In this document: positions 44,902 to 56,257 of the stretch, one piece after another | How positions within the stretch are numbered: position 1 is the stretch's first letter | How the letters are laid out: each line of letters opens with the position of its first letter | Source: Candidatus Poribacteria bacterium | GTDB lineage: Bacteria > Poribacteria > WGA-4E > WGA-3G | Length of the DNA: 64,000 nt | Direction: 5' to 3' | NCBI GenBank assembly: GCA_965242965.1 | Contig: OZ251518.1 | Span: 3,328,001 to 3,392,000 of the forward strand | Program-made: the position numbers and the translations under genes | Notes under the pieces: generated by a model | The model's database searches: none | What the model saw: the letters and a program-made list of their open reading frames with translations, nothing else | What the model was told of the DNA's origin: nothing

Positions 44902-45072
44902 TTTACGTTATGCGATGCTTGCATAAAATTGAGACTGAACCCGGCAAGTTTTTTGTCGTAGAAATTGTTGTTTGTTTTCGGCCCGTTTAGAAACACACTA
45001 AAAATCACTACGCCTCCTTTTCTGGCAGGTGTCTGTGCCCGCCTTCGCGCACCGGACAGGAGAAGAATCTAC

Positions 45073-48000
45073 GTGAAAACACGCAAAACTTTCGCCAAAA
45101 CAGACGTTCGCACCCCTTTACCGAATTTGATTGAGACGCAGCAGCGTGCCTACGATGCCTTTTTGCAGCGTGAGACGTTCCCGCGCCAAGACAGCGGCCT
45201 GGAGGCAGTCTTCCGAGAAGTCTTTCCTATCACTGACTTCAACGAAGTCTCGCGCCTCGAATTCGTCCACTACCAGCTTGGCGAACCGAAATGGACGCTT
45301 GACGAATGCCTCGCCCGCGGTGTCACTTACCAGGTATCCCTCACCGCGCGTCTCCGCCTCGTCGTTTGTGAGAAAAACGCGGCGGACGAAGAACCGCACG
45401 TCGTCGATATCCGCGAGTCCGATGTCTTTCTCGGCGAAGTCCCGCTGATGACAGAAAACGCCAGCTTCATCATCAACGGCAGCGAACGCGTCATCGTGAA
45501 CCAGCTGCACCGCTCACCCGGTGTCATCTTCCTTGAGAAGAAACTTCCGAGCGGACACCGCTCACCCACGGCGCAAATCATCCCTTACCGCGGGGCATGG
45601 ATAGAATTTGAATCGGACTCTAAAGATACGCTTTACGTCCGGTTAAACAAACGTCGAAAGATACCTGCCACCGTCTTCATCCGCGCACTCGGATGGCAGA
45701 CGGATGCAGACATATTGAAACTGTTCGCTGAACCGACGCGCATGATGCTCTCGGGGTGGCGCGTCACAAAAGTGATACTCCCCGAATGCCCACGCCAAAT
45801 CGGTGAACTTTTAACCGCGAAGGAACATCGAGAGTTGGATGACGACTACCCGGGCATGGAAGCTGAAAAACTCTACGAAGTCGTCTCCGTTCCTGACGAT
45901 GCCGAATGCCCTGTTGCTGTCGGCCAGAGGCTCACGGAAACTGAATGGAAGTCCCGCAAAACGCGAAAAGACATCACCTTTGAACGCGTCTGGCGTATCA
46001 CCAAGCATTACCGGCACGACATCCCTTACGCCATCGGCGACATCGTTTCCGATGCAGATTATCGGAAGGCACGGAAGGATTACCCCGGTATTGAGGTAGA
46101 ACCGCACTATCGCGTCACGGCTGTCACAGACAAAGGGTGCCCGCTGGAAGAAGGACAGATGCTGACACTCAGGCAGCGCGCCAGCGAACGTCGGAAGTGG
46201 AAAGGGTTCACCACCGAACGACTCCTACGCATCACGAATATTCTCAATACCGGATGCCCCTTGAATGTCGGCCAGCACCTCTCGTCTACTGAATACACCG
46301 AAATGCTCGGCAGGTATTCTGACGCTTTCAAGGCAGTCGAGATTGAACCGACAGACATCAACGAAACCATTGGTAGTGTCTGCGCTGAACCTATCGCCGA
46401 CCCGAGGACTGACGAACAGTTGGTGACAGCGAATACGCTCCTCACCGAAGCAGAAGTCACACGGCTGCGGGATGCCGGCGTGGAGACGCTCACGGTGTTG
46501 ACACCCGAATCCGCCAAAGCTCTCCGCTTTTTACGGAATACCCTCGAACGCGACAAAGAGGCGGACTACGAGGAGGACATCCGTGCTCGCGGACGGCAGA
46601 GCGAAACGCCAATTCAGGATGTCGCCCTGCTCAAAATCCACTCTGTCCTCAGACCGGGGGAACCTGCTAGTATTGAGGCAGCGCGCCGGCAACTTGAATG
46701 GCACTTCTTCGACGCACCCCGTTATGACTTGGGGACTGTTGGACGCTACAAAGTGAACCAAAAACTGGGACACCTCTCCATATACGGTGAACAGCCCGAT
46801 GAGAAACAGCGCACGTTGCGTCCAGAGGACATCGCGGCGACACTCCGGCATCTGATTGATGTCCAAAATGATCCTGCGTTAACAGACGACTTGGATCATC
46901 TCAGTAATCGTCGTGTGCGCGGCATCGGCGAATTATTGGAGAACCAGTTCCGCATCGGCTTATTCCAGATGCGGCGTGCCACGCGTGAACGCATCTCCTC
47001 CGCCGATATGAGCAACTGTATGCCGCCAATGCTGATTAATCCGAAGCCGCTCATGGTATCGCTGCGCGAGTTCTTCGGTTCAAACCAACTCTCGCAGTTT
47101 ATGCAGCAGGTAAACCCGCTGGACGAATTGACGCACAAGCGGCGCATTTCCGCCATCGGCCCCGGTGGTTTATCGCGCGATAGAGCCACCGCTGCCGTTC
47201 GCGATGTGCATCACACGCACTACGGACGTGTCTGTCCGTTGGAAACACCTGAAGGCCCCTCTATCGGCCTCCTCGTCTCACTTGCGTGTTATGCGCGTAT
47301 CAATCCTTACGGTTTCATTGAGACACCGTACCGCAGAGTGGTGCCCGGCAAGTCTATGGTTGAAACGCAAATTGAATACCTCACCGCCGATAAGGAAGAC
47401 AGAGCCCACATCGCCGCCAAAACCATCCCTCGCGAGATGACACCGGGCGCGAAGCTGGACACGGGTATCCAGCTGCCTGTCCGAAAAGGCGAAGAGGTGC
47501 TGTCCTTGCCCCTGTCCGAGGTAGACTACGTCGGCATCTCGCCATCGCAGATTGTCGGCGTATCCGCGGCTCTCGTGCCCTTTTTAGAGCATGAAGACGC
47601 GAACCGCGCGCTCATGGGCGCGAACCACCAGCGACAAGCCGTGCCGCTTATCACGCCGGAAGCACCGCTCGTCGGCACCGGCATGGAGGCACGCGTCGCA
47701 CAGGACTCAGGGGCATTGTGCATCGCGAAGCGGAGCGGCACCGTCGAAAGCGTCTCCGCCGAAGATATCATCATCCATACCGATGAAACACTTCACGCAG
47801 ATGTCAGTGAACAACACAAGAGTGAGATGGGGTACGACCGGTACGAACTCCACACCTTCAAACGGAGCAACAACGGCACGTGCATCCATCAGCGGCCCAT
47901 CGTCTCTGTCGGCGATAAAGTGGCAGCCGGTGATGTCGTCGCCGATGGGACTTCTACCGATGAAGGCGAACTCGCACTCGGCAGGAACGTTCTCTGCGCC

Positions 48001-49599
48001 TATATGCCGTGGGGCGGACACAACTATGAGGACTCTATCCTCATCAGCGACAGGCTCGTCCAAGATGCCACCTTCAGCTCGATTCATATTGAGGAATTTG
48101 AGGTAGAGGCGCGGGAAACGAAAATGGGACCGGAGGAAATTACGCGCGATATTCCGGATGTTGGTCAACAGCGACTCGCGCAACTCGACGAAGAAGGAAT
48201 CATCCGCGTCGGAAGCCTTGTCAGCGCAGGGAGCATCCTCGTCGGCAAAATTTCACCCAAAGGCGAGAGTGAATACGGACCGGAGGAGAAACTCCTGCAC
48301 ACTATCTTCGGTGAAAAGGTGCGCGAAGTCCGAGACGCATCCGCCTATGTCAAACCGGGCATTGAAGGTGTCGTGATTGATGTCAAAGTCTTCTCACGAA
48401 AACAAGAACCAAGCCGACACTCGCTGCAAAGCTTCGCTGACGCAGACCAGCTCCGTTACGATGCTAAGAAGAAGGAGATAGAGGAGAAGTTCCACGAACA
48501 TCTCCAGGCTATCCGCCGCCGCCGAGACGAAGAAATTCGGAACGCTCTCATCGACTGCGAATTGGCACAGCCGATTTTTAGAGGGGCCACCCCTGAAGCA
48601 ACCGTCGGGCGCGCAGACGAGTTGGACGAGATCGGGGCAGTCCTGGCAGAGAGCGGCGACACCGTGACACACGAACTCCTGCACACACCCGGCGTTGCGC
48701 TCAACGAGATTTACGTCGTTGAATCAAACGTCATGGCATACATCCAGCGCGTTCAAGAAATCGCCGATGAGCGCATCGCCGCCTATACCGAAGAAAAATC
48801 AAGTTCGCTCGAACGGATGGAACTCGGTGACGAACTGAAACCCGGCGTGCTTAAACTGGTGAAAGTCTTTGTCGCAACGACGCGCCATATCTCCATCGGC
48901 GATAAGATGGCGGGCCGCTATGGCAACAAAGGCGTGGTAGCAGAGATTCTGCCCAAAGAGGATATGCCGTATCTCCCCGATGGAACGCCTGTGGACATCG
49001 TGCTGAACCCCCTCGGCGTGCCATCCCGCATGAACGTCGGGCAAATTCTTGAGATTCACCTCGGCTGGGCGTGCCATGCATTGGGCATCCATGTTGAGTC
49101 GCCTGTCTTTGATGGCGCGACAGAGGACGAAATCTTCGAGATGCTCGCCAAGACAGATTTGCCGGAACGCAGCAAGGAGACAGGAAAAAGCATCCTTTAC
49201 GATGGCAGAACCGGGGAAGCGTTCGGACAGGAAGTCACCGTGGGCCATGTCTACTTCCTCAAACTGAACCATCTCGTCGCCGACAAAATGCACGCCCGTT
49301 CTACCGGCCCCTACTCGCTTGTGACGCAGCAGCCGTTGGGCGGCAAGGCGCAACACGGCGGACAGCGGCTCGGCGAGATGGAGGTGTGGGCATTAGAGGC
49401 ATACGGTGCCGCGCACACCTTACAAGAGATGCTCACGCTCAAATCCGATGATTTCATGGGCAGAGCCAAAATTTATGAGTCGGTAGTGAAGGGGCTCAAC
49501 CCCGAATCCCCCGGCACACCCGAGTCTTTCAACGTTCTCGTGCGCGAACTGCAGGGCCTCGGGCTCAGCGTTTCCCTGAATCCGCCTGAAGAAGAATAG
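45073..49599 (+). CDS. rpoB: RNA polymerase beta subunit (~1508 aa) with repeat insertion
   Basis: FIINGSERV, DDLDHLSNRRVR, THKRR, ETPEG, GDKMAGR, HARSTGPY, GQRLGEME; GTG start after AGGAG. Confidence 0.97.
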   Translation: MKTRKTFAKTDVRTPLPNLIETQQRAYDAFLQRETFPRQDSGLEAVFREVFPITDFNEVSRLEFVHYQLGEPKWTLDECLARGVTYQVSLTARLRLVVCEKNAADEEPHVVDIRESDVFLGEVPLMTENASFIINGSERVIVNQLHRSPGVIFLEKKLPSGHRSPTAQIIPYRGAWIEFESDSKDTLYVRLNKRRKIPATVFIRALGWQTDADILKLFAEPTRMMLSGWRVTKVILPECPRQIGELLTAKEHRELDDDYPGMEAEKLYEVVSVPDDAECPVAVGQRLTETEWKSRKTRKDITFERVWRITKHYRHDIPYAIGDIVSDADYRKARKDYPGIEVEPHYRVTAVTDKGCPLEEGQMLTLRQRASERRKWKGFTTERLLRITNILNTGCPLNVGQHLSSTEYTEMLGRYSDAFKAVEIEPTDINETIGSVCAEPIADPRTDEQLVTANTLLTEAEVTRLRDAGVETLTVLTPESAKALRFLRNTLERDKEADYEEDIRARGRQSETPIQDVALLKIHSVLRPGEPASIEAARRQLEWHFFDAPRYDLGTVGRYKVNQKLGHLSIYGEQPDEKQRTLRPEDIAATLRHLIDVQNDPALTDDLDHLSNRRVRGIGELLENQFRIGLFQMRRATRERISSADMSNCMPPMLINPKPLMVSLREFFGSNQLSQFMQQVNPLDELTHKRRISAIGPGGLSRDRATAAVRDVHHTHYGRVCPLETPEGPSIGLLVSLACYARINPYGFIETPYRRVVPGKSMVETQIEYLTADKEDRAHIAAKTIPREMTPGAKLDTGIQLPVRKGEEVLSLPLSEVDYVGISPSQIVGVSAALVPFLEHEDANRALMGANHQRQAVPLITPEAPLVGTGMEARVAQDSGALCIAKRSGTVESVSAEDIIIHTDETLHADVSEQHKSEMGYDRYELHTFKRSNNGTCIHQRPIVSVGDKVAAGDVVADGTSTDEGELALGRNVLCAYMPWGGHNYEDSILISDRLVQDATFSSIHIEEFEVEARETKMGPEEITRDIPDVGQQRLAQLDEEGIIRVGSLVSAGSILVGKISPKGESEYGPEEKLLHTIFGEKVREVRDASAYVKPGIEGVVIDVKVFSRKQEPSRHSLQSFADADQLRYDAKKKEIEEKFHEHLQAIRRRRDEEIRNALIDCELAQPIFRGATPEATVGRADELDEIGAVLAESGDTVTHELLHTPGVALNEIYVVESNVMAYIQRVQEIADERIAAYTEEKSSSLERMELGDELKPGVLKLVKVFVATTRHISIGDKMAGRYGNKGVVAEILPKEDMPYLPDGTPVDIVLNPLGVPSRMNVGQILEIHLGWACHALGIHVESPVFDGATEDEIFEMLAKTDLPERSKETGKSILYDGRTGEAFGQEVTVGHVYFLKLNHLVADKMHARSTGPYSLVTQQPLGGKAQHGGQRLGEMEVWALEAYGAAHTLQEMLTLKSDDFMGRAKIYESVVKGLNPESPGTPESFNVLVRELQGLGLSVSLNPPEEE

Positions 49600-49696
49600 C
49601 ATCCTTAGCCACGGCACATAGGGTGAGGGCGAGGGCCTGTCCCTCGCCGTGCCGCGGGTTAAGCACACATCCGAATCCATAGGAGAAAAATCCACA

Positions 49697-52600
49697 ATGG
49701 CAACCCCATTTGACAGTATCTCCCTCAAAATCGCTTCGCCGGAGGAAATCAAAGAGTTGGCGAAGCGCACCTGCTGCAAACGCAGAAGCAGCACCGTCGG
49801 CCACGGCGAACCCTTCATCTGCCCAGAAATGCACACCTGCAACTGCGGCGAGGTAAAGAAGGCCGAGACGATTAACTACCGCTCCTTCCGTCCCGAACTC
49901 GAGGGCCTCTTCTGTGAGGCAATTTTCGGGCCGTCCAAAGACTGGGAGTGTAACTGCGGCAAATATAAACGGATTAAGCACAAAGGTGTTATCTGCGACC
50001 GGTGCGGCGTGGAAGTCACGCGCCAGCACGTCCGCAGGGAACGGATGGGCTACATCCAACTCGCATCCCCTGTCTCGCATATCTGGTTCTTCAAGGGTGT
50101 CCCATCGCGCATCGGCGCGTTCTGCGAACTCTCCGCACGGCAGATTGAGAACATCCTCTATTTTGATGCGTTCATGGTGACTGAAGCCGACGAGGAACTT
50201 CAAGAACAAGGCATCATGAAGCCGAACCAACTCATCAGCGAGGCAGAATTCGACCGCTACAAACGCGAATACCGCGGCCGATTTAAGGCAGGTGCCGGTG
50301 GCCAGATACTTGCCAAACGCCTCGCGAGCCTGGACTTGGAAGCAGAGTGCGCGAAAATTGTCAAGGAACTCGAGGAAACGCGCAGCCATCAGAAAAAGGT
50401 GAAACTCACCAAGCAACTCCGACTGATGGAAGACTTTATCAGTTCCGGACAGCGGCCCGAATGGATGATTCTGGATGTGCTGCCTGTCATCCCGCCGGAT
50501 TTGCGTCCCCTCGTCACCTTAGATGGCGGCCGGTTCGCCACCAGCGATTTGAACGATTTGTACCGGCGGCTCATCCATCGGAATAATCGCCTCGCTAAAC
50601 TCATCAAGATGCGCTCTCCCGAAGTCATCTTGCGCAACGAGAAACGGATGCTGCAAGAAGCCGTTGACGCATTCTTTGATAACGGCCGGCACGGCAGACG
50701 CGTGACAGGGCCCGGCAATCGCGAACTCAAATCCCTCTCGCACGTTCTCAAAGGGAAAGTCGGACGGTTCCGTCAGAACCTGCTCGGCAAACGCGTTGAC
50801 TACTCCGGCCGCAGCGTCATCGTCGTCGGCCCGGAACTGGGGATACACCAGTGCGGCATTCCAAAACAGATGGCGGTGGAGTTGTTCAAGCCGTTTATCA
50901 TTGAACGGCTGCAAGCGCATGGCTACAGCGGCACTATCAAACGCGCTAAGGCTTATGTCGAACATATTGACTCTAACAGCCCCGTGTGGGAAGTCTTGGA
51001 AGAAGTCATCGAAGAACATCCGGTGTTGCTCAACCGGCCACCGACACTGCACCGGCTCGGTATTCAGGCGTTCATGCCTGTGTTGGTAGAAGGAAAATCT
51101 ATCAGAATTCCGCCACTTGTCTGTAAAGCGTTTAACGCCGATTTTGATGGAGACCAGATGGCGGTGCATGTGCCGTTAACCGCTGAGGCACAGGCAGAAG
51201 CGAAACTGCTGATGCTCAGCAGCCATAACATCTTGAAGCCATCGCACGGTGGCCCGATTGCCGTTCCCGAACTGGATATGGTGCTTGGGCCGAGTTACCT
51301 GACGAAGACGCTGCCAGAGCACGATGCAGACGCGCAGCTGCTCCACAAGGTTTATACCACCCAAAACGGCGATGCAACGTTACTCGATGAGATTCGCAGG
51401 AAGCCGTGGTATCACCGCCGCTATGCGCATATGGAGGAAGTCATCGCCGCACACGGTGCCGGGCAGCTCAAACTGCACGACAGCGTCCAACTGTTTTTTC
51501 CGGAAAACGGCGCGCCGCGCGAACCGATTCTCACCACCGTCGGCCGAGTGATTTTTAACGAAGTGCTGCCAGCCGAATTGAAGTGGGTGGACGCGCACTC
51601 TGGACAGCGACTTCCGTTTTTCAATGGGGAAGCAGGTGGGAGGCAGCTCTCGGCAATCGTTGAAACCTGTTTCAACACTCCCGAACTCGGCACGCGGGGG
51701 ACTGTAGCACTGCTGGAGAAACTTCAAAAACTCGCGTTTGAATATGCAACGTTGAGCGGCATTTCGCCCGGCATTATTGATTATATCACACCTTCGCAGC
51801 GGGAAGGACTGTTGGCGAAGACAGAGGCAGCTATTGCCAAACTCCGCGCCGCCGCCGCCGCAGATGCCGATACGGAAGAACTCGAGAACCAGCAAATCCA
51901 CTTGTGGTACCAAGCACTGCGAGAGATGGAAAACATCATGTTTTCCAGACTCCCGGAATTGGAAACCCAACTCGTTGAACGGGGTGAAGATGTCAAAGGG
52001 TTCAGTCCGGTGCATATCATGGCGGATAGTGGGGCGCGGGCGCGGAAAAATCCGTTCATGCAAATCAGTGCCGTTATCGGGCTGAAGGCGAAGCAGAGCG
52101 GCGAAATTCTGCTACCACCGATTACCACCTCCTATCGCGACGGGTTAGACGTGATTGACTACTTCAACTCCACCTACGGTTCCCGAAAAGGCTTGGTGGA
52201 TACGGCAATGAAGACAGCGGCATCGGGTTACCTGACGCGGAAACTCGTTGATGTCGCGCAAGACGTGCGCGTCACCGAAGCGGATTGCGGCACGGTCAAC
52301 GGCATCAAAAAATTTGCCACGGAAGGCGGCGAACTCGCTTTTAAAATCAACGGACGCACCGCGACAGAGGATATCCTACATCCCAATACCGGTGAAGTGC
52401 TTGTCAAAGCGGATGAACTCATTTCAGCCGAAGCAGCGGCACTGATTGAAAAGAGTGAGATAAAAAGCGTCAACGTCCGTTCCGTGCTCACCTGCGCAAC
52501 CGAAGACGGTGTCTGCGCCAAATGCTACGGACACGATTTGACGACGAACATGCTTGTCAGTGTCGGTGAAGCTGTAGGTATCATTGCCGCGCAATCCATT

Positions 52601-55600
52601 GGCGAACCCGGCACGCAGCTCACGATGCGGACATTCCACACTGGGGGTGCAGTGGAGGAAGTCTCCGATGCACGCCAGCGTCAAATCCGAGCAAAAGCGA
52701 GTGGCACTGTGAGGTTCCGGGATTTCCATCCCGGCATCACTGTCCACCAAGAGGGCACTCTCTGGATATCCACAGGGCCGGGTAATGCCCCGCTAGGAAA
52801 TCCCCCGAGTGCCAGCGCGGATGCGGAAGATGAAACGCAACGAAAGACCGGGAACCGAGCGAATTTGGACGCGCCTACCTACAAAGTCACGCGCGTCATT
52901 CACGCCGATTGCAAATTACGGAAAGACGAATTGCTCAACGAAAAGCAGTATTCCGAAAACGCGCAGCGTTACAAAGGCTTTGAGACAGTTCCATGGCAGC
53001 ACCGCGTCACCGCTGTTCACGATGATGCCTGTCCCGTGAAAGAGGGCGACAGACTTTCCGCCGCGCAGTGGCGGGAAGCCATAAGTGCATACGGCTTCCC
53101 GCGCTTTGCAACCGAGAAGCGCGAGATAACACACGTCCGCCTATCTACTGTGAACGTTCAACCCGACGATGTGCTCACCGAAGAAGAAATTGAGCAGCGC
53201 GAAGCGGAAATTCGGAACCGATTTGACGGCGAATGGTGCTACCGTATCCCCAAAACCGGCGAGATTTTCAAGTCGGCTCAAGACTTTTTGCCCGGCTTGG
53301 GCATCCCTGTGGAGCCCCTTGAAGATATTGAGGATACAGAAATGCTAGGCGACACGTCAGCTGAAACGGCGGAAGACCTGGCTTCTGCGGAAACATCACT
53401 AGCGAAAGACACCTCTTTTGAACGCGTCTACCGCATCACCGAGCGGACAGATCGGGATTTCCCGTATGCTGTCGGGGATATCGTGGCAGCGGAGGAGATT
53501 GAGCCGTGGCTCACGCCTTTTGAGGCGGCACCGAACCCTGTCTATGTTATTGATGCAAACGCGCCCTGGCATGCAGGCGAAACGTTGACACGCTACCAAT
53601 ACGAGGAAGTGTGTCGCGACTATCGGCCGTTTGAATCCGAAAAAGCGGCGGAGGTGCTGCACCACGTTACGGCAGTGCATCATCCCAAATGCCCGCTCAA
53701 ACCGGGTCAAGATTTGACAGAAGCAGATAAAAACGCTATGCTCGCTCGCTGGTCTGGGTTTGACGTTGAGAGGCTGCGGCACCGTGTAACGCACATCTAT
53801 CATCCGGGTTTTCCACACACACCGGGCTATTTGATGAGCGATGCGGAGGCGAAACGGCTGGGGAGTAAACATCCTGGCTTTGAGACAGAAACATCTCCTG
53901 TCTTTGCAGCGCAATTGGTGATATGGGAGGACGAAGAAGCGGAATCGTCTGATAAAGCGAAACCTATCAAGCCCTATTGCGTGACAGGGATTCATCACCG
54001 CGACTGCCCCCTGGAGGCCGGGGACCTTTTCACTCCCAAGGAGGTAACTGCACAACGCAGGAAATTCCCAGGGTTTGATGTTGAACGCTTCTACGTGATC
54101 CCCAGGGAAAACATCTACGAGGTAACCGAAACTAAGCGAGCCTTTACCGCAAAAGCGTTAGCGGGTTCCAAGAAGAGTTGGCGCATTACTGAAGTGCTTC
54201 ATCCGGCGTGTCAACTTGAAGTTGGCAAGATAGTTTCCGATGCCACGTATAAAAAGACTCGCAAGACCTATCCTAGCACTAATCAAGGGCAGCTCATAAC
54301 GCAGACAGCATTTGAAACATGGGGGGGATCCTTAGCAGCCACGCAAGTGTCTCCGGAGCCTGAGCAGTTTCTCCATCGGGTAACCGAAGCTAAGCCAGCC
54401 TTCACCGCAGAAGCGTCGCCGGAAGCAGAAACGTCGCGAGAATCAGACAGGACCTGGCGCGTCACCGAAGTGTTCAATACAGCATGTCCTTATGAGGTCG
54501 GACAAGAAATCTCCGATGTCGAGTATCGACGAGGCCAAGAGGAATATGGTGATACTCGCGGAGACTTCCTGACGCAGATGGAGTTGGAACACCGGAACGC
54601 CCTCACGACTCAACCTGTTCTGCAACTCTCTGAAACGGAGTTCAAGGTCCTTCGCAAAACGGATCCGACGCTCAAGGATAGGGTGATTACCTCCCGATAC
54701 CGCGTTGTGGACACCTATCACCCAGAGTTCCCCTTTAAAGTCGGCGAGGTCCTGACAGATAAAGATTACAAGCAGTGCCAGAAAGACTTCAGAGGGTTCG
54801 ATGTTGAACATTTCTACGAGGTTACCGCAGACGAACGTGAATTCGTGGAGAGCAGCCCTCAGGAAGCGGAAACCCAACTCATTTCAGACCTCACCGTAGA
54901 GGGGCCGCACTATCGGCACGACGTTGAACCCTCTCCGGTAGCGACATTTGAGAAGCCGCGTCTCAAGAAATTTTGGCGGGTTAATGCAGTCTCCAACCCA
55001 GAGTGTCCGCTGGAGGTTGGTCAAAATCTCTCCGAGGGCGAATATCTGGCGGCACGCGAGACATACAAGGTAATTACCGAAAAACAGAACCCTGATTCAC
55101 GTTTCCTTGAAGGTGATATCCTTGTCCTCTCCGAGCGGGAATACAACGCGCTCATGAAAGGCCATAGGCAAGAAGCTCCGCACACCGTTACCGCCGTGCA
55201 TCACCCAAATTGTCCACTTCAGGTTGGAGCCAAATTGAGCAAAGCGGAATACGAGGGTTTGAGTGCTCACTACCCCGGGTTTGATACCGACGAACCCGCA
55301 CTGCGGATGCATATTGAGATAGAGACTGCGGATGGACATCGGGTGCCGCATCTTATCACGGAAGGTTACTCCTTCTCCATCAAGGAGGGCGATCCCGTCA
55401 AAGTGGAAGACACTCTCGCCGAGCTCCATGAAAAGACAGCGAACATGGATATCGTCGCCGGGATTCCGCGTGTGACAGATCTCTTTGAGGCGCGCCGTCC
55501 TAAACGTGAGGACGCGGCGGAAATCGCCGAGATTGAGGGACGCATTGAGGCAGCAGGCACCAAAGCCGGTGTGCCGACATACCGTATCGTTGATGAGGAA

Positions 55601-56257
55601 CACCAGAGCCGCCTCTACGCCATTCCTGACGAAAAACGGCGCGTCACCGAAGGCGACCGGGTAAAGGCAGGACAACCGCTCACGGACGGTTACCTCAACC
55701 CGCACGATATCCTCAGCATCGGGCGCGTCTTCATTGAAGATGTGCCAATTGATGGTGATGAAGCACTCTGGACATACCTCGTTGAGGAAATCCAAAAGGT
55801 TTACGGTGCACGCGCCATCAACGACAAGCACCTCGAAGCCATCGTCCGCCAGATGACGAGGAAGGTGCGGGTGATAGCACCCGGCGATACGCAGTTTCCC
55901 CATAACAGTGAGGTGCCGCGACAGAAATTCAATGAAGTCAACGCGAAGGTTATTGCTGAAGACGGTAAACCCGCTACCGGCGAACCGATTCTGCAAGGCA
56001 TTAGCCGCGCATCGCTCAGTACCGACAGCTTCATCTCTGCCGCCTCGTTCCAGCAGACGACGAAGGTGCTGACAGATGCCGCTGTCAAAGGGCAGAAAGA
56101 CAAACTCTTCGGATTGAAGGAGAACGTCATCCTCGGTCGCCTCATCCCTGCAGGAAGTGGACTTTCGGATTTCCAGCATTTGGAAATCACGGAAGTTGAC
56201 GCTGACGAAGAGATGGAAGCACCGGAATCCGCCGAGTCATCGTCTGCGGTGCCATAA
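49697..56257 (+). CDS. rpoC: RNA polymerase beta' subunit (~2186 aa) with giant trigger-loop insertion
   Basis: Zn finger CNCGKYK...CDRCG, GRFRQNLLGKRVDYSGRSV, NADFDGD, QLTMRTFH, GLKENVILG; RBS aggag. Confidence 0.97.
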   Translation: MATPFDSISLKIASPEEIKELAKRTCCKRRSSTVGHGEPFICPEMHTCNCGEVKKAETINYRSFRPELEGLFCEAIFGPSKDWECNCGKYKRIKHKGVICDRCGVEVTRQHVRRERMGYIQLASPVSHIWFFKGVPSRIGAFCELSARQIENILYFDAFMVTEADEELQEQGIMKPNQLISEAEFDRYKREYRGRFKAGAGGQILAKRLASLDLEAECAKIVKELEETRSHQKKVKLTKQLRLMEDFISSGQRPEWMILDVLPVIPPDLRPLVTLDGGRFATSDLNDLYRRLIHRNNRLAKLIKMRSPEVILRNEKRMLQEAVDAFFDNGRHGRRVTGPGNRELKSLSHVLKGKVGRFRQNLLGKRVDYSGRSVIVVGPELGIHQCGIPKQMAVELFKPFIIERLQAHGYSGTIKRAKAYVEHIDSNSPVWEVLEEVIEEHPVLLNRPPTLHRLGIQAFMPVLVEGKSIRIPPLVCKAFNADFDGDQMAVHVPLTAEAQAEAKLLMLSSHNILKPSHGGPIAVPELDMVLGPSYLTKTLPEHDADAQLLHKVYTTQNGDATLLDEIRRKPWYHRRYAHMEEVIAAHGAGQLKLHDSVQLFFPENGAPREPILTTVGRVIFNEVLPAELKWVDAHSGQRLPFFNGEAGGRQLSAIVETCFNTPELGTRGTVALLEKLQKLAFEYATLSGISPGIIDYITPSQREGLLAKTEAAIAKLRAAAAADADTEELENQQIHLWYQALREMENIMFSRLPELETQLVERGEDVKGFSPVHIMADSGARARKNPFMQISAVIGLKAKQSGEILLPPITTSYRDGLDVIDYFNSTYGSRKGLVDTAMKTAASGYLTRKLVDVAQDVRVTEADCGTVNGIKKFATEGGELAFKINGRTATEDILHPNTGEVLVKADELISAEAAALIEKSEIKSVNVRSVLTCATEDGVCAKCYGHDLTTNMLVSVGEAVGIIAAQSIGEPGTQLTMRTFHTGGAVEEVSDARQRQIRAKASGTVRFRDFHPGITVHQEGTLWISTGPGNAPLGNPPSASADAEDETQRKTGNRANLDAPTYKVTRVIHADCKLRKDELLNEKQYSENAQRYKGFETVPWQHRVTAVHDDACPVKEGDRLSAAQWREAISAYGFPRFATEKREITHVRLSTVNVQPDDVLTEEEIEQREAEIRNRFDGEWCYRIPKTGEIFKSAQDFLPGLGIPVEPLEDIEDTEMLGDTSAETAEDLASAETSLAKDTSFERVYRITERTDRDFPYAVGDIVAAEEIEPWLTPFEAAPNPVYVIDANAPWHAGETLTRYQYEEVCRDYRPFESEKAAEVLHHVTAVHHPKCPLKPGQDLTEADKNAMLARWSGFDVERLRHRVTHIYHPGFPHTPGYLMSDAEAKRLGSKHPGFETETSPVFAAQLVIWEDEEAESSDKAKPIKPYCVTGIHHRDCPLEAGDLFTPKEVTAQRRKFPGFDVERFYVIPRENIYEVTETKRAFTAKALAGSKKSWRITEVLHPACQLEVGKIVSDATYKKTRKTYPSTNQGQLITQTAFETWGGSLAATQVSPEPEQFLHRVTEAKPAFTAEASPEAETSRESDRTWRVTEVFNTACPYEVGQEISDVEYRRGQEEYGDTRGDFLTQMELEHRNALTTQPVLQLSETEFKVLRKTDPTLKDRVITSRYRVVDTYHPEFPFKVGEVLTDKDYKQCQKDFRGFDVEHFYEVTADEREFVESSPQEAETQLISDLTVEGPHYRHDVEPSPVATFEKPRLKKFWRVNAVSNPECPLEVGQNLSEGEYLAARETYKVITEKQNPDSRFLEGDILVLSEREYNALMKGHRQEAPHTVTAVHHPNCPLQVGAKLSKAEYEGLSAHYPGFDTDEPALRMHIEIETADGHRVPHLITEGYSFSIKEGDPVKVEDTLAELHEKTANMDIVAGIPRVTDLFEARRPKREDAAEIAEIEGRIEAAGTKAGVPTYRIVDEEHQSRLYAIPDEKRRVTEGDRVKAGQPLTDGYLNPHDILSIGRVFIEDVPIDGDEALWTYLVEEIQKVYGARAINDKHLEAIVRQMTRKVRVIAPGDTQFPHNSEVPRQKFNEVNAKVIAEDGKPATGEPILQGISRASLSTDSFISAASFQQTTKVLTDAAVKGQKDKLFGLKENVILGRLIPAGSGLSDFQHLEITEVDADEEMEAPESAESSSAVP

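Follow-up and report, generated by a model that had tools for sequence, protein, structure and literature searches.

A 933-residue trigger-loop insertion of tandem small-left-claw-like modules in the RNA polymerase β' subunit of Candidatus Poribacteria

Results

An array of small modules interrupts the RpoC trigger loop

The 64,000-nucleotide stretch analyzed here (the window; positions 3,328,001 to 3,392,000 of the forward strand of contig OZ251518.1, GenBank assembly GCA_965242965.1, Candidatus Poribacteria bacterium) contains rpoC, the gene for the β' subunit of RNA polymerase (RNAP). The trigger loop of this β' subunit is interrupted by an insert of 933 amino acids. The two ends of the insert fold, in the predicted structure, into a single sandwich-barrel hybrid motif (SBHM), and the interior carries 13 modules of ~40 residues that, by profile comparison, are paralogues of β'-bD2, a domain near the amino terminus of the same protein that all bacterial β' subunits possess. 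A preliminary description made from the sequence alone had placed about 930 residues, with 13-15 copies of an unfamiliar ~38-residue repeat, between two trigger-loop motifs. The analysis that followed leads us to regard the array as a probable lineage-specific trigger-loop insertion of the SI3 type, assembled from bD2-derived modules.

Residues are numbered along the 2202-residue open reading frame (ORF) that starts at GTG 49649, and nucleotide positions are window coordinates. The rpoC ORF (49649-56257, + strand) matches TIGR02386 over residues 64-2175 with 1428.7 bits against a cut-off of 963.5, contains Rpb1 domains 1-5 of Pfam, and lies directly downstream of rpoB (44965-49599, + strand). 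The database RpoC P0002 is 99% identical. The true start is probably ATG 49697, 16 codons downstream of the GTG, because the 2186-residue database protein and the orthologue consensus begin there, at the equivalent of Met17; the window protein would then also have 2186 residues.

The trigger-loop motifs RTFHTGG (residues 994-1000, 52628-52648) and DIVAGIPRV (residues 1934-1942, 55448-55474) are separated by exactly 933 residues (52649-55447), in line with the first count. The insert has a computed mass of 105.9 kDa, where ~100 kDa had been estimated, a pI of 5.2, a net charge of -49, 34 His, and 12 Cys. Its flanks align to E. coli β' residues 933-977 and 1109-1141, which places it, as first proposed, at the SI3 site between two trigger-helix segments of β' conserved region G. 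The catalytic trigger-loop residues are intact on either side.

The two contigs of the genome assembly total 5.70 Mb, base composition does not change across the insert region, and the 6.6-kb frame is uninterrupted. Nine public runs each contain half or more of the sampled sequence words; the labelled ones are sponge metagenomes, and no RNA run was listed among them. Logan contigs from three runs, each of a different study, leave none of the 30 bins of 52300-55800 uncovered and extend across both junctions. Their matches to the stretch are mostly at least 99% alike, and one piece of 1790-1808 nt spans 53655-55465. Because contigs of independent sponge metagenomes tile the stretch, the insert is no assembly artefact, and the chimera raised in the preliminary description as a possible refutation was not borne out. 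The orthologues that bear the insert include closed single-contig genomes. As for an intein-like element removed from the protein, no Hint or intein family was found in the window RpoC with Pfam at E ≤ 1, and an interior that is a repeat array also counts against an intein. No point in support of either a chimera or an intein was found, and we give these readings virtually no weight.

The short-read contigs of two or three runs join 53763 to 54454, skipping 690 nt in frame from repeat to repeat, and also join 52706 to 52922 (215 nt). These joins may be strain variants with fewer copies or assembly-graph links induced by the repeats.

The insert ends form one split SBHM

The SI3 insertion of E. 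coli (β'In6, the G/G' insert; PDB 2auk and 4iqz) has 188 residues and consists of two SBHMs. Residues 985-1950 of the window RpoC (966 residues) were modelled with AlphaFold2 from 71 aligned sequences, which gave a mean predicted local distance difference test (pLDDT) of 72.8 and a predicted template modelling score (pTM) of 0.51. In this model, the first ~40 residues of the insert and its last ~45 contribute strands to a single domain. Its amino-terminal half is at residues ~1008-1045 (52670-52783, + strand; model residues 28-57) and its carboxy-terminal half at residues ~1885-1930 (55301-55438, + strand). VIA-align superposes 82 residues between model positions 24 and 944 on E. coli SI3 (4iqz_A) with Z = 13.6 and an rmsd of 1.6 Å, which confirms the suggestion that the insert ends are two halves of one SBHM. 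Matches to E. coli β' in RNAP entries have Z = 10.4-12.6 and fall on residues 1020-1134 in all rows but one, 8ac1_D, where residues 948-1021 are matched with Z = 10.4. Plastid β'' is matched with Z = 10.4-10.9.

The two halves also align by sequence, the amino-terminal part to the start of SI3 and the carboxy-terminal part to its end, both in E. coli and in other Poribacteria families. The insert thus shares with E. coli SI3 its insertion point in the trigger loop, its end strands, and its SBHM, and this split SBHM is a remnant of an ancestral two-SBHM SI3. The difference lies in composition. SI3 consists of SBHMs, whereas only the ends of the Poribacteria insert form one, split by 13 other modules, and the ~800-residue interior of the 933-residue insert is non-SBHM.

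The interior is an array of 13 repeats

A first hidden Markov model (HMM) was built from eight window copies picked by eye and recovered further copies. A better HMM was then made from 758 distinct trigger-loop repeats of the orthologues. It finds 13 copies inside the insert at an independent E-value (i-E) below 0.01, and 100 shuffled versions of the insert averaged 0.01 hits, with never more than 1. The copies start at residues 1078, 1118, 1160, 1261, 1304, 1338, 1378, 1443, 1511, 1603, 1684, 1776, and 1845. All are on the + strand, copies 1-5 at 52880-52987, 53000-53119, 53126-53236, 53429-53497, and 53558-53644, copies 6-9 at 53660-53779, 53780-53893, 53975-54094, and 54179-54274, and copies 10-13 at 54455-54547, 54698-54817, 54974-55069, and 55181-55294. 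The array with its linkers therefore runs from 52880 to 55294, which agrees with the interior first sketched at ~52880-55290, and the unit is ~40 residues long. One or two vestigial half-copies are also visible in the insert, for example LSEREYNAL at residue 1827. The consensus of the 758 repeats, [Y/H]-x-V-T-x-V-x-H-P-x-C-x-L-x-x-G-x-x-L-[S/T]-x-x-E-Y-x(6)-[Y/F]-x-G-F-[D/E], is essentially the one written down by eye.

Each unit is predicted to consist of a 6-residue strand, an 11-residue loop (H-P-x-C-P-L-x-x-G), a strand of 2-3 residues (L-S/T-x), a 10-residue helix, and a final strand continuous with the opening strand of the following unit. Two blocks of repeat units have a pLDDT above 90. 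Six low-confidence linkers, each with a net charge of -1 to -9, are predicted to be disordered; one of them is at residues 1049-1071 (52793-52861, + strand). Whether the array is a rod or is docked lies beyond the reach of the model because its pTM is 0.51.

Known families do not account for the insert. No Pfam family scored above its cut-off within it when the whole window RpoC was scanned. T4_MRH at residues 1689-1718 had 18.5 bits against a cut-off of 24.4 and was rejected, as were weak Biotin_lipoyl/Peptidase_M23 matches on the carboxy-terminal SBHM half and bD6. A phmmer search of the insert against the PDB sequences, among them E. coli and cyanobacterial SI3, gave three chance matches (best E = 0.024), none to an RNAP. 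Foldseek returned no match at E ≤ 0.001 for the 966-residue model, and the ESM Atlas gave no usable match for residues 1074-1420.

These searches bear on whether the interior could consist of degenerate SBHM/HABAS motifs like those of cyanobacterial Si3. The repeat unit has a short ψ-x-x-G-x-x-ψ-[ST] stretch that recalls half a GD-box, and the typical insert of the family, at ~640 residues, is nearly as long as cyanobacterial Si3 with its 645. Against this, each ~40-residue unit has a 10-residue helix and a single G-x-x-L-[ST] stretch, not the four-stranded open sheet and GD-box-like motif (ψ-x-ψ-ρ-x-G-ρ-x-ψ-x-x-G-ρ-x-ψ) of an SBHM; phmmer finds no RNAP chain in the PDB, the SI3 entries included; only the insert ends superpose on an SBHM; and the repeat profile matches bD2 (below) and not the region that contains the HABAS domain bD6. 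A disguised SBHM array is extremely unlikely, and the distinction first drawn between the interior repeat and the SBHM holds.

The recurrent His and Cys of the repeat had suggested an appendage that binds metal or senses redox state. Position 8 is His in 81% and position 11 is Cys in 74% of the 758 repeats, which gives an HxxC spacing, and the insert has 34 His and 12 Cys in total. However, no third or fourth conserved ligand appears across the 758 repeats, and two candidate ligands per unit fall short of the three or four of a zinc site. Where Cys 11 is replaced, the residue is Leu, Phe, Ile, or Val, the pattern of a buried core, and His 8 is otherwise Asp or Asn. Tandem partners in the window often lack one of the ligands (DDACPV in copy 2, HPGFPH in copy 7), the loop is mostly D-P-G-x-T in the bD2 sequences of other bacteria displayed, and no Pfam metal-binding family was found in the window RpoC. 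The metal or redox function is thus not supported and is judged very unlikely.

The repeat is related to β'-bD2

In the available text of Alvarez-Carreno et al. 2024 (PMC11515920), β'-bD2 (CATH 3.30.60.280) is homologous to bD7, and both are named 'small left claw' (sLC). That text places bD2 at residues 139-177, 142-181, or 145-191 in three reference proteins without an insertion there and at 131-140 and 211-236 in a fourth, and bD7 at 1155-1198 in Prochlorococcus β'2. The sLC insertions it describes are rare and lie in bD2, bD4, bD5, and bD7, not in the trigger loop (PMC11515920).

The link to bD2 emerged because the consensus of the orthologue alignment revealed an amino-terminal element. 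The seed HMM, which contains only the trigger-loop copies of the window, matches this element at residues ~161-197 VVEVTDPDCPLEVGQVLTEVEYVEHSNKHWGGFRAGT in most Poribacteria RpoC proteins with an i-E of 1e-7 to 1e-11. In the 119 proteins with bounded inserts, 1098 of its matches are inside the trigger-loop insert and 101 outside. The element aligns to E. coli β' residues ~146-185, and HMM matches to the native bD2 of Poribacteria reach an i-E of 1e-12.

Profile comparison extended the relationship beyond the phylum. With a bD2 set of 77 non-Poribacteria genomes of many phyla plus E. coli, hhalign aligned the 758-repeat profile to the bD2 profile over 24 columns with a probability of 96.4% and E = 1.1e-9. 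Against the whole 514-column amino-terminal alignment, the sole match was bD2 (E. coli residues 151-177; 87%, E = 3.8e-6), and the next had E = 0.76. The carboxy-terminal region of β' with the HABAS domain bD6 and bD7 served as negative control and gave nothing (E = 0.089 over five columns). The trigger-loop HMM has a single, weak match in the 2749 residues of E. coli RpoC and RpoB, at β' 154-178. A search of the PDB sequences with the repeat profile gave nothing significant; B. subtilis β' 141-163 (E = 0.68) is in the right place but too weak.

Structure comparison was carried out with a separate model of residues 1255-1420 (166 residues), whose pLDDT of 79.3 is below that of the same stretch in the large model. 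Against 48,161 PDB representatives, 42 chains scored Z ≥ 2 and none reached Z 5. The top three are β' or β'' chains, 8w9z_c residues 1228-1280 (Z = 3.7), 6edt_D residues 1163-1214 (Z = 3.5), and 8syi_Z residues 1125-1186 (Z = 3.4), and by their position we infer that the matched segments are bD7. Rank 6 is a construct of the M. tuberculosis β' insertion, which we take to lie in the bD2 region. Foldseek found nothing at E ≤ 0.001 with this model; the matches in which a probability of 0.84-0.87 coincides with a low rmsd (1.2-1.9 Å over 38-40 columns, 25-29% identity) are β' chains of B. subtilis and V. cholerae, with E above 1. The structural evidence is weak alone and points in the same direction as the profiles.

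Taken at the level of sequence profiles, the repeat unit is a paralogue of β'-bD2. The building of an HMM and the profile and structure searches proposed at the outset thus led to bD2 and to no SBHM match. The repeat is indeed of a different type from the SBHM, but it is not unfamiliar.

The native bD2 of the window RpoC is located by alignment to E. coli β' at residues ~171-217 (50159-50299, + strand). It has diverged, with a 5-residue insertion relative to E. coli and loss of the D-P-x-C-P-L signature that most relatives keep, and its residues 191-210 score 8.5 bits with the 758-repeat HMM.

In the sampled genomes, the array is confined to one family of Poribacteria

Of 7998 candidates scored in a search with the insert, 173 proteins had E ≤ 0.001. 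Pfam finds Rpb1 domains in all 120 of the matches listed of these 173, and a source is named for nine listed matches, six of them Candidatus Poribacteria and one the sponge Geodia barretti. The best named genome match to the amino-terminal region of RpoC is a Poribacteria metagenome-assembled genome (MAG) at 75% identity. Insert bounds were found in 119 of 121 proteins. The insert is 618-1359 residues long (median 647), with 91 proteins below 700 residues and seven at 1000 or above. Relative to the common ~640-residue form, the window insert has extra residues at 1042-1066, 1502-1658, and 1745-1825, which amount to about three more copies plus linkers.

A sample of 41 Poribacteria genomes was divided into families f1-f6, with the window genome in f1. 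Repeat matches are present in 24 of 24 f1 genomes (5-16 per genome), five of six f2 genomes, and one of six f3 genomes (one match each), and in none of the five genomes of f4-f6. Six of the 17 genomes outside f1 therefore have one match and 11 have none. The single f2 match is the native bD2 in the one genome checked, G010. One genome each of f2, f3, f4, f5, and f6 has a trigger-loop insert of 193, 203, 182, 266, and 180 residues, respectively, all without repeats; these five families keep the ordinary 180-266-residue form that resembles E. coli SI3. The comparison of repeat number across Poribacteria MAGs thus finds the array throughout the sampled f1 genomes and not in those of f2-f6. Two side observations come from other frames. 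The f4 RpoC (G008:C24, locus L091) has a 1781-residue frame with an SI3 of only 182 residues and therefore must carry a large insertion elsewhere; a gap lies around rpoC model positions 1063-1074. A second rpoC-like frame, 2246 residues long (G004:C261, locus L092), is present in genome G004, which has 5% contamination.

The trigger-loop HMM scores the native bD2 of f2 at 35.8, f3 at 32.8, f5 at 9.9, f6 at 7.2, and E. coli at 2.8 bits, and the native bD2 domains of f2 and f3 have the signature D-[PS]-x-C-P-L in common. Because the score decays with distance and f2 and f3 share the signature, the sequence record indicates that the lineage's own bD2 gave rise to the array once f1 had separated from its sister families.

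Sequence change is faster in the insert than in the core of the protein. Identity is 64-70% for the insert and 90-93% for the core among close relatives, and 47-50% and 73-75% for the common ~640-residue forms. On these alignments it is nevertheless clearly conserved and positionally alignable.

A search of 1,835,955,588 representative proteins with the repeat profile gave 51 matches at E ≤ 1e-3, 30 of which match the window RpoC or RpoB by BLASTP and 21 do not. Five of these 21 were scanned with Pfam. Four are LVIVD or Ig-like repeat proteins whose matches cover only about half of the profile, from its start (positions 1-23 at most), and were taken as spurious; the fifth, P0157, has only a sub-threshold MjAgo_N-like match.

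The module is also present in RpoB and at other RpoC sites

In the window genome, the repeat profile has 17 matches at E ≤ 0.01, 12 in rpoC and five in rpoB, and none elsewhere. The five tandem modules of RpoB (residues ~264-455; 45757-46320, + strand) directly follow ILKLFAE, the place in the β lobe where E. coli has SI1. Both large subunits thus bear arrays of one module. A BBM2-like native segment follows the RpoB modules. E. coli SI1 (β-i4) is composed of BBM2/BEAN motifs and lies at the same lobe site after the corresponding ILDLF/ILKLF motif, whereas the window RpoB insert is built of sLC modules.

Across the family, RpoB ranges from 1343 to ~1818 residues, with arrays at three different sites. 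RpoB of G024 (locus L096; 1343 residues) has no copies, and that of G025 (L097; 1548 residues) has five at the window site. RpoB of G016 (L098; 1784 residues) has three copies at the window site and three near residues 1361-1482, and the ~1815-residue proteins of G012 (L099) and G017 (L100) have six or seven at rpoB model positions 551-593. Pfam found nothing above cut-off in the RpoB inserts of the window and its relatives.

Further copies are at the bD2 site of RpoC in P0085, P0054, P0056, and P0089, and in P0045 in a carboxy-terminal insertion after the trigger loop (residues 2074-2192). The family REase_MTES_1575 (PF18741) is above cut-off in the RpoC proteins of three relatives. It lies within the trigger-loop array of P0004 (residues 1384-1475) and P0017 (1418-1509), where the inserts reach 1345-1359 residues, and beside the carboxy-terminal repeat copies of P0045 (1899-1991). 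Four non-polymerase proteins that are absent from the window genome (P0129, P0135, P0134, and P0139) contain three to five copies of the module. P0129 and P0135 combine the modules with short amino-terminal repeats, a hydrophobic segment, a coiled-coil-like stretch, and TPR repeats, and P0129 alone has a sub-threshold HSDR_N_2-like region. A whole-genome search with P0129 was swamped by TPR matches, apart from one in the RpoB frame of G016.

These occurrences allow a more speculative reading, which we hold to be doubtful. The ~40-residue module would be an in-frame mobile cassette from β' that often travels with PD-(D/E)xK nuclease-like domains (REase_MTES_1575, HSDR_N-like) and has entered at least six surface sites of both large subunits as well as membrane-anchored TPR proteins. 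The β array at the SI1 site and the β' array might then form an arch or gate that links the subunits above the downstream-DNA or secondary channel, to which the TPR-anchored proteins could dock. A complex prediction for RpoB residues 246-479 with RpoC residues 1074-1560 scored 0.00 against a mark of 0.32, a result that weighs neither way on binding.

Discussion

The Poribacteria array is likely a lineage-specific, SI3-type trigger-loop insertion of bD2-derived modules that serves as a general modulator or surface platform of the polymerase; this applies to its identity and general role, and our confidence in any specific contact of the array is much lower. The proposed course of events is that the first ~45 and last ~55 residues of the ancestral two-SBHM SI3 were kept and fold into one SBHM tethered to the two trigger helices, and that the middle was replaced by 13 small α/β modules, duplicates of β'-bD2, joined by the six acidic linkers. 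The array would have been born in one Poribacteria family, its copy number would later have diverged between lineages, and the module would have been inserted also at other surface sites of β and β'.

In the field, trigger-loop insertions are regarded as runs of SBHMs, 2-5 in number according to one preprint (10.1101/2021.01.27.428476). The best functional analogy is cyanobacterial Si3. According to the available text of PMC10895346, the cyanobacterial and plastid Si3 has 645 residues in eight partly nested SBHMs, is the largest of the known insertions that are lineage-specific, and is elongated and mobile and runs along the polymerase. Like the Poribacteria insert, it is a giant trigger-loop insertion of nested build, with additional domains interrupting an SBHM. 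It differs in consisting of SBHMs only, whereas the Poribacteria insert is made of sLC modules and is larger (933 residues, and up to 1359 in P0004); the two have no sequence match, and the Poribacteria β' is unsplit. The modules resemble the sLC domains bD2 and bD7 in profile homology (to bD2), in the order of secondary-structure elements, and in their best structural matches, which are of low Z. The sLC of known polymerases, however, is a single-copy clamp or jaw element, and the Poribacteria modules form tandem arrays of 9-14 or more.

In E. coli, each folding cycle of the trigger loop is accompanied by a rotation of SI3, which influences pausing and the stability of open complexes. Secondary-channel-binding factors make use of both SI1 and SI3, and SI1 forms the opposite wall of the downstream channel (PMC6970531). 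By analogy with the E. coli and cyanobacterial SI3, we infer that the Poribacteria appendage would be carried by the trigger loop through the folding and unfolding of each nucleotide-addition cycle and would thereby modulate catalysis, pausing, and the accessibility of the secondary channel. As a probable docking platform, the long acidic array would extend along the surface of the polymerase or span it.

Several points weigh against this interpretation. The structural Z-scores to sLC are low (3.1-3.7), with none of the 48,161 chains at Z 5, and the Foldseek E-values are all above 0.8; for these reasons the fold assignment rests mainly on the profile comparison. The hhalign alignments cover only 24-26 of the 42 repeat positions, and bD7, the other sLC, is not detected by the trigger-loop profile at the sequence level. 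The arrangement of the domains in the model is uncertain (pTM 0.51, 245 residues with pLDDT < 50). The role is argued by analogy with SI3, and a passenger under weak constraint would equally be compatible with the variable copy number, the disordered linkers, and an evolution faster than that of the core.

As such a passenger, the array would be mostly tolerated, a self-derived module proliferating in frame at permissive RNAP surface sites, possibly with nuclease-like domains, and with little or no role in transcription. The insert spans 618-1359 residues in the 119 proteins with widely varying copy number, it evolves faster than the core, and the extra copies of the window come with disordered linkers. 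The module also occurs at further sites (the RpoB lobe, two more RpoB sites, the RpoC bD2 site, and the carboxy-terminal site of P0045), and REase_MTES_1575 is nested in or beside the arrays of P0004, P0017, and P0045. Yet 24 of 24 f1 genomes keep at least five detectable copies, no insert among the 119 orthologues is shorter than 618 residues, orthologous repeats remain alignable at 47-70% identity, and no site of the enzyme is more sensitive in functional terms than the trigger loop. On balance we consider a passenger unlikely and favor the SI3-type modulator or platform.

Lineage-specific trigger-loop insertion as a kind, and the sLC as a single-copy β' fold, are known already. In the open-access PMC and bioRxiv literature, we found no description of a trigger-loop sLC array, of an array of this size, or of the module in both subunits, as the preliminary description had supposed. 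The open-access papers that name both Poribacteria and rpoC mention rpoC once each, in one of them merely among 16 tree-marker proteins.

At 933 residues in the window and up to 1359 in relatives, the Poribacteria insert exceeds the insertion described as the largest known and uses a different building block. It offers a rare opportunity to trace stepwise how a lineage-specific insertion was born, because the array is an intragenic copy of bD2 and the sister families retain the ordinary two-SBHM SI3. It raises the mechanical question of how a trigger loop can carry a load of 106 kDa while refolding each time a nucleotide is added. The array is also a signature of one Poribacteria family. The rpoB and rpoC genes serve as phylogenetic markers, and alignments of these sponge symbionts must therefore allow for the array.

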